Positions 31,902 through 34,120 are shown, counted from the stretch's first letter. The stretch: DNA of 64,000 nucleotides from Alphaproteobacteria bacterium (GCA_965232515.1 CBDDPY010000002.1:3392001-3456000); one strand, 5' to 3'. The notes: generated by a model not told the origin, from the sequence alone. Numbers and translations are program-made.

Positions 31902-32792
31902 TCATGCCCGACGCCGCTTCATCTCGGCGGCGAGGCGGTCGGCGAGACCGGGGCTGACCTCGGTCATCGGCAGGCGGACCTCGGGCGACGCGATCAGGCC
32001 GGCGCGCCAGAGGCAGTGCTTGATCGGCGCCGGGCTGGGCTCGGCGAACAGCAGGCGGGCGAGATCGACGAGGTCGCGCCACAGGCGCAGCGCGCCCGGC
32101 TGATCGCCGGCGATCAACGCGTCGCGGACGGCGGCGAAGGCCGCGGTCTCGATATGGGCCGAGGCGAGAATGCCACCGTCGGCGCCCTGGGTGAGCGCCG
32201 TATAGAACAGGGCGTCCTCGCCGGTCAGCACGCTGAATCCGGGCGGCCGGTCGCGCAGCAGGTCGAAGGACTGCGCCGCGTTCACGCAGCAGTCCTTGAC
32301 GCCGACGATATTCGGGAGCTCGGCCAGGCGCAGCAGTGTCTCGTTCGCGAGGTTGACGCCGGTGCGGTAGGGGATGTTGTAGAGCACGACCGGACGGTCG
32401 GTGCGGCCGGCGAGCGTGGCGAAGTGGCGGTAGAGGCCTTCCTGCGGCGGCCGGCTGTAGTAGGGACAGGTGATGAGATAGCCGTCGACCGGCCAGGTCT
32501 CGGCGCGGTCGAGCGCCGCGGTCAGCCGGCGGGTATCGCTGCCGGAGAGGCCGAGGAACACCGGCCGCCGGCCGTTCACCGTCTCCGTTGCGATGGCGGC
32601 CAGGCGCTCGGTCTCGGCGTCGTCGATGGTGAGGCCCTCGCCCGTGGTCGCGGCCATGATGAAACCGTCGACCGGCTGGTCGAGGTAGTGCGCGATCAGG
32701 CGCGTGAGCGAGGTTTCGTCAAGACGTCCGTCGTTGAACGGCGTGATCAGCGGCAGCCAGAGGCCCTGTATCGGTGTGGTTTGCTGTTGCAT
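31902..32792 (-). CDS. dapA: 4-hydroxy-tetrahydrodipicolinate synthase
   Basis: ATTGE, PYY.RP, LYNIPYRTG and GVKD (Schiff-base Lys) catalytic motifs all present. Confidence 0.85.
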   Translation of the reverse strand: MQQQTTPIQGLWLPLITPFNDGRLDETSLTRLIAHYLDQPVDGFIMAATTGEGLTIDDAETERLAAIATETVNGRRPVFLGLSGSDTRRLTAALDRAETWPVDGYLITCPYYSRPPQEGLYRHFATLAGRTDRPVVLYNIPYRTGVNLANETLLRLAELPNIVGVKDCCVNAAQSFDLLRDRPPGFSVLTGEDALFYTALTQGADGGILASAHIETAAFAAVRDALIAGDQPGALRLWRDLVDLARLLFAEPSPAPIKHCLWRAGLIASPEVRLPMTEVSPGLADRLAAEMKRRRA

Positions 32793-32836
32793 GTGTCTGC
32801 TCCGGTTTGCGGCGCTGCCGGCGGAACGGACACTCG

Positions 32837-32871
32837 AAAAAAGAAACGGCCCCGTCCGGTCCGGCGGGGCC
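32837..32871 (-). terminator. Intrinsic terminator in the dapA 5' leader
   Basis: Minus strand reads GGCCCCG-CCGGACCGGA-CGGGGCC-G-TTTCTTTTTT, ending about 45 nt before the dapA ATG. Confidence 0.85.
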
Positions 32872-32897
32872 TGTCGATGGTCGATGCGCCTATCGGC

Positions 32898-32975
32898 TTA
32901 GCGCGCGCAGAAACCTTCCGTCCCCGGGATGAGGAACGTTTTCAGTTTCAACGTCGTGGCGGGCCGATACCGCAT
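32898..32975 (-). CDS. Putative dapA leader peptide MRYRPATTLKLKTFLIPGTEGFCAR
   Basis: 26 codons from ATG to TAA, between the promoter and the terminator; Lys codons AAA at positions 10 and 12. Confidence 0.7.
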   Translation of the reverse strand: MRYRPATTLKLKTFLIPGTEGFCAR

Positions 32976-32981
32976 GGCCGC

Positions 32982-33009
32982 ATTCTCGCGGCATGCCGTG
33001 GAAAGTCAA
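32982..33009 (-). promoter_or_regulatory. Putative sigma70 promoter of the dapA leader
   Basis: Minus strand TTGACT-N16-GAGAAT, with the leader ATG after a 6-nt gap, consistent with a leaderless start. Confidence 0.55.
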
Positions 33010-33013
33010 TCGA

Positions 33014-34120
33014 CTAGACGGTGGCGCCGTAATCCGCCGGCAGGGCGACGTGCAGCAGCTCCAGATCGCCGCTGTCGCTGTTGAGCGCGTAAGTCATGTC
33101 GGCGGGAATCACAAAGGCGTCGCCGGGCGCCAACGCCTGCGGGTCGTCGCCGTCAGCGCTGAGCGTCGCGGCGCCGGTCAACACGAAGCCGAACAGGAAT
33201 TCAGCCGCGTGGCGGTGCGGCGGCAAGCCGCCGCCGGACGGGAAGCGGACCACACGCACATCGGCGAGGCCGTCGGTCGCGGCCGAGATGCCGATGTCGC
33301 GGGTTTCCGTGCCGTCGAAGCGCCAGGGACGCCACGTGGCGGTCGCGGCCTGGTGGCGGACGAAGCGCTGTCCGCCGAAGTCGCGGTCGGGCTTGACCAA
33401 AGATGTCGGCAGTTCGAGCGCGTGGTCGGCGCAGGTCAGGTGCTCGGCCGGGCAGCCGATCTCGACCACTTCCAGGCCGGGGGAGCATTCGACGACGCGG
33501 TGGCGGATCTCGGGCGGCTGCAGCACGCAGTCGCCGGCGAACATGCGGAACAGCGGCCCCTGATCCTCGTAGAGCAGATCGACCCAGCCCTTGTAGCAGT
33601 AGATCATCTGAAAGCGGATCTTGTGGAAGTGCACCATGTCGGGCACCGGGCCGCCGTCGGGGATGCGGATATGCGAGGCGATGAAGCGCCCGCCCTGACG
33701 GTCGGGAATGAGATCGCGGTACTGCATGCCGGCGCGACCGACGCCCCAGGCATCGGCGCCGTCGGTCATGCGGGTGACCACAAGGGATGGCGCCGGCGGC
33801 GGCAGGTCGAGCGGCGGGTCGGCGGCGACCAGCTCGATGCGCGTGCCGTTCGGCGCGGTCAGCGTCGGCGCGCCGTCAGCGAGATCGGACGGATTACCGC
33901 AATGCAGGCGGATCACGCCCGGCGCGCATTCGGCATCGCGGTCGAGACGCAGGCGCAAACCGTGGCCGGACAGCACGGCGACAGCCGGATCGTCGGCCGG
34001 AAAGACCACGTCGAGACGGAAGCCGAGACGCTCGCGGAAAAAGGCCAGCGTCTCGTCAAGGACGACGCACGGCAGCACGACTTCGGCCGCCGCGATTCCT
34101 CGGTCATCGGTTTCCGTCAC
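33014..34120 (-). CDS. Multi-domain protein: VOC-like N-terminus plus two cupin domains
   Basis: GRAGMQYRDLIP, VHFH...FQMIYC.KGW, QPPEIRHRV; second cupin H.H..EF.FGFVL.G. Confidence 0.82.
   Translation of the reverse strand: MTETDDRGIAAAEVVLPCVVLDETLAFFRERLGFRLDVVFPADDPAVAVLSGHGLRLRLDRDAECAPGVIRLHCGNPSDLADGAPTLTAPNGTRIELVAADPPLDLPPPAPSLVVTRMTDGADAWGVGRAGMQYRDLIPDRQGGRFIASHIRIPDGGPVPDMVHFHKIRFQMIYCYKGWVDLLYEDQGPLFRMFAGDCVLQPPEIRHRVVECSPGLEVVEIGCPAEHLTCADHALELPTSLVKPDRDFGGQRFVRHQAATATWRPWRFDGTETRDIGISAATDGLADVRVVRFPSGGGLPPHRHAAEFLFGFVLTGAATLSADGDDPQALAPGDAFVIPADMTYALNSDSGDLELLHVALPADYGATV

Follow-up and report, generated by a model that had tools for sequence, protein, structure and literature searches.

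A candidate leaderless attenuator with Lys codons upstream of a second dihydrodipicolinate synthase-like gene in Alphaproteobacteria

A 64,000-nucleotide (nt) stretch of an Alphaproteobacteria bacterium genome (GCA_965232515.1, CBDDPY010000002.1:3392001-3456000; hereafter the window) was analysed for the 183-nt leader that precedes a minus-strand gene of the dihydrodipicolinate synthase (DHDPS) family, here termed dapA2. Comparison of this leader with its counterparts in other genomes indicates that it is probably a leaderless, ribosome-mediated attenuator, in which Lys codons of a short open reading frame (ORF) would be sensed to control a second, dapA-like DHDPS gene. The strongest support for an attenuator comes from sister leaders coded for Thr or Thr+Lys, which can be read as a natural codon-swap control: across them the scaffold is constant, and the identity of the codons follows the pathway of the regulated gene. 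Ribosome-mediated attenuation is favoured because it predicts such a swap, which neither a riboswitch nor an arrest peptide does.

Leader conservation, Lys codons and sister leaders

Scanning one genome per species yielded 60 loci, of which 57 (L013-L069) include the start of the gene, with upstream DNA that could be examined. With the window leader as query, BLASTN returned a match just upstream of the gene in many of these loci. The terminator core (CCCCGCCGG..GGACGGGG) was present in 53 of the 57 orthologous loci, those without it being L015, L038, L065 and L068, and a leader ORF of standard length (19-29 codons) was also present in 52 of the 57. Recurrence of the same ordered set of features before the orthologous gene in 53 of 57 loci goes beyond chance. 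The sequence-only reading of the window had made its case depend on the ORF and the Lys codons being conserved in orthologues, and both are kept. The carriers are nearly all Alphaproteobacteria, with Rhodopseudomonas, Tardiphaga, Bradyrhizobium, Neoroseomonas, Inquilinus, Vineibacter and Acetobacteraceae among them. Two contigs binned as Acidobacteriota (L032 and L033; Terriglobales, Sulfotelmatobacter) also hold the full leader and dapA2, which reflects either horizontal transfer or mis-binning.

Most counts below refer to a set of 54 leaders, consisting of the window and 53 others. In all 54, frame 0 stays open for 19 codons or more; in 53, the first stop in this frame ends 20-45 nt upstream of the terminator core, as against 2 and 8 leaders for the other two frames. 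Stop codons are mixed (TAG 23, TAA 16, TGA 14; frame broken in 1), and the start is ATG in 50 leaders and GTG in 4. In a coding-blind MAFFT alignment, 52 of the 54 rows show 5' length differences of 0, 3 or 6 nt. This conservation of start, frame and stop supports translation of the leader ORF.

A TTGAC element occurs in 54/54 leaders, 35-36 nt before the ATG in 50 of them, and is followed by a cATaaT-like -10 motif whose end lies 7 nt upstream of the A of the ATG; counted from the ATG, A stands at -11 in 39/54, T at -7 in 39/54 and C at -1 in 41/54. The last T of the window's -10 box likewise lies 7 nt before the A of the ATG. From the spacing of the -35 and -10 elements to the ATG, transcription is predicted to start at the A of the ATG, so that the leader mRNA would be leaderless. 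A promoter consensus scan found the TTGACT/GAGAAT site as the sole match in 3 kb, with 0.3 expected from shuffled sequences. The elements that had been picked out from the window alone, namely the promoter TTGACT-N16-GAGAAT with an ATG at the expected +1, the 25-aa ORF with AAA at codons 10 and 12, and a GC stem with U-tract about 45 nt before the gene, were all located (Table 1); the start site itself is a prediction, and the dapA2 ATG (32792) lies 44 nt downstream of the U-tract.

All 56 distinct dapA2 leader peptides contain at least one Lys in codons 6-16. When the 54 leaders were anchored on the GGGG of the first hairpin, Lys fell within codons -7 to -3 in every one and at codon -5 in 39, and upstream of the hairpin it was the sole conserved residue. 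In 52/54 leaders, 0-3 nt separate the last Lys codon from the start of the hairpin (median -10 kcal/mol). Codon choice is strongly shifted towards AAA, with AAA:AAG at 83:24 in the leaders (78% AAA), compared with 32:215 in the dapA2 genes of the same loci and 56:220 in the long ORFs of the window; the genome carries one tRNA-Lys(UUU) and one tRNA-Lys(CUU) gene. A second input through Thr codons 7, 8 and 13 of the window leader, as the sequence-only reading had put forward, was rejected: these codons are not conserved, even a congener is without two of them, and three or more Thr in codons 6-20 are found in 3 of 56 dapA2 leaders.

A covariance model of the leader (R1) detected one further significant copy in the same genome (E = 1.2e-9), outside the window at L074:1483-1680 (G000:C2, about 5455591-5455790). 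This copy has a leaderless 30-codon ORF with nine Thr codons and the same -35 spacing, terminator core and hairpin over the Shine-Dalgarno (SD) sequence, and it precedes a thrS paralogue (L074:1674-2873) that encodes a 399-aa, N-terminally truncated threonyl-tRNA synthetase (ThrRS; TIGR00418, 450.9 bits). An Inquilinus genome likewise has the terminator motif before a thrS paralogue, with a Thr-rich leader, and before asd, with a Thr+Lys leader. Among 401 genomes sampled from the class, a stricter terminator motif gave 25 matches in 22 genomes, and a reversed-pattern control gave none. The matches are followed by dapA2 (5), thrS paralogues (7), asd (9), a methyltransferase (1), an acetyltransferase (1) and an unknown gene (1), the remaining one being an ordinary terminator. 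Mean numbers of Lys/Thr codons per leader are 2.0/1.3 for dapA2 (n=56), 0.4/5.6 for the thrS paralogues (n=7) and 2.4/4.7 for asd (n=9), and several asd leaders also contain Met. The asd leaders with the scaffold are those of L100, L102, L111, L112, L114, L116, L120, L122 and L090, most of them with TTTACA, not TTGAC, as the -35 element.

Alternative pairings and the proposed switch

The minimum free energy (MFE) fold of the 183-nt leader, which is more stable than those of shuffled sequences (z-score -2.9), holds hairpin 1:2, the terminator and, as a third hairpin, one in which the SD sequence is paired. For the window, the energies are -7.5 kcal/mol for hairpin 1:2, -12.5 kcal/mol for the 2:3 duplex and -19.1 kcal/mol for the terminator. 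The mutually exclusive pairings that had been proposed by hand folding were recovered by computation: CGUUCCU/GGGGACG (1:2) and GGCCCCG/CGGGGCC (3:4) are both part of the MFE fold, and the 2:3 pairing is exactly what the nascent transcript (nt 1-118, up to the terminator loop) adopts as its MFE fold under a mask that keeps nt 1-46 unpaired. In this antiterminator fold (-25.2 kcal/mol), UCCCGGGG pairs with CCCCG..GGA, with an inner UGCGC/GCGCA helix. The full-length window RNA with the same mask keeps the terminator.

RNAalifold on the MAFFT alignment recovered the terminator only; as the variable helices are misaligned there, hairpins were analysed sequence by sequence. The terminator core is nearly invariant, and its basal pairs covary (AU 32, GC 11, GU 7). 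In hairpin 1:2 the outer pairs covary around four fixed G, with UA 14, GC 19 and CG 6 at the first position beyond the GGGG according to the per-sequence predictions. For the terminator 5' arm, the best upstream partner in 46/54 leaders is the 3' arm of hairpin 1:2 (median about -11.5 kcal/mol); the window is an exception, with a 5'-proximal stretch slightly outscoring the hairpin arm (-12.9 vs -10.2 kcal/mol).

Downstream of the hairpin, 41 of the 54 leaders have at least six U in 10 nt. The terminator is followed by a conserved anti-SD segment (consensus CCGUCUCCGGC), which forms the 5:6 duplex with the SD region (median -11.5 kcal/mol). Complementarity to the same anti-SD also exists in the terminator, on its loop side and 3' arm (CCGG..GACGGGG; median -15.4 kcal/mol), and in 48/54 leaders the anti-SD is the best downstream partner of the terminator's 3' part. 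A relay, in which the off state would consist of 1:2, 3:4 and 5:6 and the on state of 2:3 and 4:5 with the SD free, is therefore plausible but unproven.

As we envisage the attenuator, transcription would start at the A of the leader AUG and a ribosome would load on the 5' end. With charged tRNA-Lys plentiful, the ribosome would reach the stop codon, which lies 28 nt upstream of the terminator core, and hairpins 1:2 and 3:4 would form; read-through mRNA, if any, would have its SD paired in 5:6. With charged tRNA-Lys scarce, the ribosome would stall with a Lys codon in the A site, mostly the rare AAA, in a genome with one tRNA-Lys(UUU) gene beside its tRNA-Lys(CUU) gene. It would then cover segment 1, and the freed GGGG of segment 2 could pair with CCCC in segment 3 ahead of the synthesis of segment 4, which would let RNA polymerase read through. 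Segment 4, now unpaired, could pair with the anti-SD (segment 5), leaving the ribosome-binding site free and the gene on.

Competing explanations and known systems

Several observations weigh against a Lys-sensing attenuator. The leaders contain 1-3 Lys codons, with a single one in 20/54, which is fewer than in most classical attenuators, and the AAA enrichment might alternatively stem from a requirement for an A-rich stretch of RNA. In two dapA2 leaders, L069 and L115, the ORF lacks a stop in the usual position and continues through the terminator; the out-of-frame stop may stem from an assembly error or be genuine variation (L115 carries seven A in a row where others have six). When full-length leaders were folded at equilibrium with a stalled-ribosome mask, the terminator was kept in 40/54 and lost in 14/54, compared with a loss in 4/54 unmasked and in 6/54 with the ribosome at the stop. 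Because these folds mostly keep the terminator and by themselves reveal no switch, the proposed switch would have to be kinetic, as is that of the trp attenuator. Covariation support for the 2:3 pairing was nil across the 54 leaders, since GGGG and CCCC do not vary. For the 4:5 pairing, only 21/54 leaders do better than 95% of their shuffles, and the window duplex (-15.5 kcal/mol) is no better than its shuffles (fraction 0.245). Nine of the 54 leaders, belonging to Xanthobacteraceae and Neoroseomonas-type clades (L040, L041, L042, L047, L049, L050, L060, L066 and L067), have no U-tract, with at most three U in 10 nt, so that termination cannot be a universal output. All nine retain the hairpin over the SD, and translational control alone may operate where the U-tract is missing; in L050, L060, L066 and L067 the 4:5 complementarity is among the strongest. 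In RNA libraries, one contig (97% alike; four runs) covers 32557-32784, inside the dapA2 coding sequence only, and these data are uninformative on expression of the leader, either way. Finally, we infer from family scores and motifs only that dapA2 makes dihydrodipicolinate.

Some of these points would fit a leader that is translated, with nascent-peptide arrest (with or without a small molecule, of the TnaC or SpeFL type) or general translation capacity as the signal: many leaders have a single Lys codon, the equilibrium folds do not support the stall model, and the peptides have in common a Gly following the hairpin and, ahead of the stop, a C-terminal (C/R)-A-R. The conserved residues besides Lys coincide, however, with RNA elements (GGGG, and GCGCGCG before the stop) that are also found in the Thr and Thr+Lys leaders; the residues upstream of the Lys are not conserved, and the leader classes differ in codon identity to match the pathway of the downstream gene, which leaves arrest or capacity sensing unlikely. 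We give even less weight to a non-coding structured RNA, whether riboswitch, protein-binding leader or small RNA, with an incidental ORF. The stability of the fold relative to shuffles, an A-rich single-stranded stretch and the very strong sequence conservation of the terminator hairpin, loop side included, are what such an RNA would show, but the conserved frame, start and stop with indels in 3-nt steps, the alternation of AAA and AAG at the Lys position and the Thr runs of the sister leaders are not. An Rfam search of window positions 32000-34000 at E up to 10 gave chance-level matches only, with neither the lysine riboswitch nor a leader family among them.

The simplest alternative takes the hairpin as the terminator of the upstream cupin gene, whose stop lies about 145 nt before the stem-loop, and the promoter-like site and ORF as products of chance. 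The sequence-only reading had named this as an outcome that would count against it, and it is contradicted by the conservation of the leader among differing neighbours. A relative from the same genus keeps the leader (88% identity over 201 nt) behind different upstream sequence, and no neighbouring gene family or operon partner was found to be shared across the 37 loci compared. As the leader is kept while neighbours and upstream sequence differ, it belongs to dapA2 and not to the cupin gene, and a mere cupin terminator is very hard to credit.

Beyond Lys-codon attenuation at dapA2, a wider reading can be offered, tentatively and with considerable doubt. The leader might be a modular leaderless cassette with two coupled outputs, whose six-segment relay joins ribosome stalling to both terminator bypass and SD release, and which has been copied and re-coded in Alphaproteobacteria for Lys, Thr or Thr+Lys+Met. 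The genes that it turns on might be those of back-up enzymes in the aspartate family (a second DHDPS, possibly insensitive to feedback, the ThrRS without N-terminal part, and asd). In the Lys version a single rare AAA might serve as the sensor, so that what is monitored would be one minor tRNA, tRNA-Lys(UUU), through its charging or its modification, and not lysine as such.

Control of lysine biosynthesis is known through the lysine riboswitch, repressors and enzyme feedback. The lysine riboswitch (RF00168) binds lysine directly, needs no translation and often acts through a terminator; it shares with the dapA2 leader the regulation of lysine biosynthesis genes, and RF00168 was unmatched here at E up to 10. 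In the lysine cluster of Thermus thermophilus, Lys codons in a short leader reportedly control lysine biosynthesis genes; that leader belongs to a different phylum and to the alpha-aminoadipate pathway, and nothing indicates a relationship of its RNA to the dapA2 leader. Classical enterobacterial attenuators (trp, his, leu, thr, pheA, ilv) combine cognate codons in a translated leader with exclusive 1:2, 2:3 and 3:4 pairings and a terminator. The dapA2 leader resembles them in its short ORF with cognate codons, the proposed exclusive pairings and the terminator before the gene. It differs in that its mRNA is predicted to be leaderless, in sensing Lys with 1-3 codons, in an added SD-sequestering hairpin complementary to the 3' half of the terminator, and in having a single paralogous gene, not a pathway operon, as its target. 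The proposed mechanism is classical, and the interest of the leader lies in the lysine specificity, the very few rare sensor codons and the re-coded family of scaffolds.

The trpL/rnTrpL attenuator of Sinorhizobium meliloti is likewise alphaproteobacterial, with a leaderless RNA and ribosome-dependent attenuation (PMC7298713, PMC10117765); its RNA is described as starting at the ATG of trpL (PMC7298713), and, unlike the dapA2 leader, it senses Trp and controls trpE(G) according to these accounts. The nearest item in the literature searched, from the same species, is the small ORF (sORF) SEP5, described with six Thr and three Lys codons in the 5' untranslated region of a gene that the authors call aspartate dehydrogenase; Ribo-seq and Western blot showed it to be translated, and a leader peptide was suggested (PMC10117765). 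The Thr+Lys composition of SEP5 resembles that of the asd leaders with the dapA2 scaffold, whereas the gene that follows is a different one, and no dapA leader is mentioned with it. Mycobacterial leaderless polycysteine sORFs, as summarised by their authors, are attenuators in which a short ORF rich in the codons of one amino acid controls downstream genes (bioRxiv 10.1101/834739); they differ from the dapA2 leader in occurring in Actinobacteria and sensing cysteine. PMC4833913 leaves lysine, dapA, asd and thrS unmentioned. A full-text literature search found no Lys-codon leader peptide before a proteobacterial dapA, with the limits that a 2004 comparative study of proteobacterial attenuators could list an asd or Lys one and that the supplements of PMC10117765 lay outside the search.

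If the attenuator is real, lysine would join the amino acids sensed by ribosome stalling in Proteobacteria, the regulation of a widespread second DHDPS in Alphaproteobacteria would be explained, and a family of leaders would be at hand in which codon identity alone changes with the target (dapA paralogue, thrS paralogue or asd). Such a family amounts to a set of natural codon-swap mutants, which makes the mechanism directly testable and offers compact parts for amino-acid-responsive switches. The regulated paralogues would at the same time be marked as starvation-induced back-up enzymes worth characterising.

The regulated gene, feature coordinates and further observations

The product of dapA2 matches PF00701 (E = 1.6e-61) and scores 228.6 bits on the dapA equivalog TIGR00674, just over the cut-off of 206.15. 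The genome has eight matches to this model, and the best (324.7 bits) lies elsewhere on the chromosome; by these scores the latter is the canonical dapA of the genome, and the leader-linked gene is a second DHDPS-family paralogue. The sequence-only reading had named the target dapA, which stands as to the DHDPS family and needs correction as to the gene, a second paralogue and not the housekeeping one (228.6 vs 324.7 bits). Five other carrier genomes each have a canonical DapA at 316-342 bits and a leader-associated gene at 207-225 bits. The dapA2 protein is 33% identical to the genome's own canonical DapA and falls into a clearly separate clade, with the active-site motifs TTGE, YY, YNIPxR and GVKD invariant between the two; it aligns best to solved DHDPS structures, with which it has the active-site motifs in common. 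Distribution is patchy, since dapA2 was found in one of 32 other genomes of the same family searched. At residues about 80-90, the dapA2 clade has a conserved GLSGSDTR(K/R) where canonical DapA has GAGSNNT, a segment which we take to contribute to the lysine allosteric site of the Escherichia coli enzyme. Because this segment differs, dapA2 may be insensitive to feedback.

Table 1. Features of the dapA2 leader region; positions are counted from the first nucleotide of the window.
Feature	Position	Strand	Basis or remark
-35 box TTGACT	33009-33004	minus	read from sequence and promoter scan
-10 box GAGAAT	32987-32982	minus	16 nt after TTGACT; 6 nt before ATG
Putative leader ORF, 25 codons + TAA stop (32900-32898), peptide MRYRPATTLKLKTFLIPGTEGFCAR	32975-32898	minus	sequence reading
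Lys codons: AAA (codon 10, 32948-32946), CUG, AAA (codon 12, 32942-32940)	32948-32940	minus	
Hairpin 1:2: segment 1 CGUUCCU, segment 2 GGGGACG	32938-32919	minus	MFE, -7.5 kcal/mol
Predicted antiterminator span: segment 2 UCCCGGGG (32929-32922) with segment 3 CCCCGCCGGA (32869-32860)	32929-32860	minus	
Intrinsic terminator GGCCCCG...CGGGGCC: stem-loop 32871-32848 (segments 3, 4), then G + UUUCUUUUUU	32871-32837	minus	
U-tract after terminator G: TTTCTTTTTT	ending at 32837	minus	
Hairpin 5:6: Shine-Dalgarno GGAG (32803-32800) with upstream anti-SD	32833-32793	minus	MFE fold
Regulated gene dapA2, 296-aa DHDPS-family paralogue	32792-31902	minus	ATG at 32792
Long-range helix: 5' end (32974-32963) with post-stop region (32897-32885), enclosing leader	32974-32885	minus	

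The long-range helix between the 5' end and the post-stop region was rejected as a general feature of the leader, being only partly conserved: it beats 95% of shuffles in 16/54 leaders, and the window itself is not among these (fraction 0.115). Weaker R1 matches in the genome (E 0.01-0.6) were discarded, as they fall at the ends of ordinary genes or inside coding sequence, and so was a third match to the terminator pattern, which lies inside a coding region.

Upstream of the leader, the window encodes on the minus strand a 368-aa protein with a C-terminal cupin domain (PF07883; 33014-34120) and a 146-aa single-domain globin (PF00042; 34149-34589) that resembles the N-terminal part of flavohaemoprotein. 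In other genomes, the scaffold also stands before genes outside the aspartate family, at L095, L109 (methyltransferase), L117 (GNAT acetyltransferase) and L123 (366-aa ORF); the L095 leader is rich in Arg and Val, and that of L117 in Met, Leu and Ile. One thrS-paralogue leader, at L107, has VILTVVTIKV, with Val, Ile and two Thr only, in place of a Thr run.

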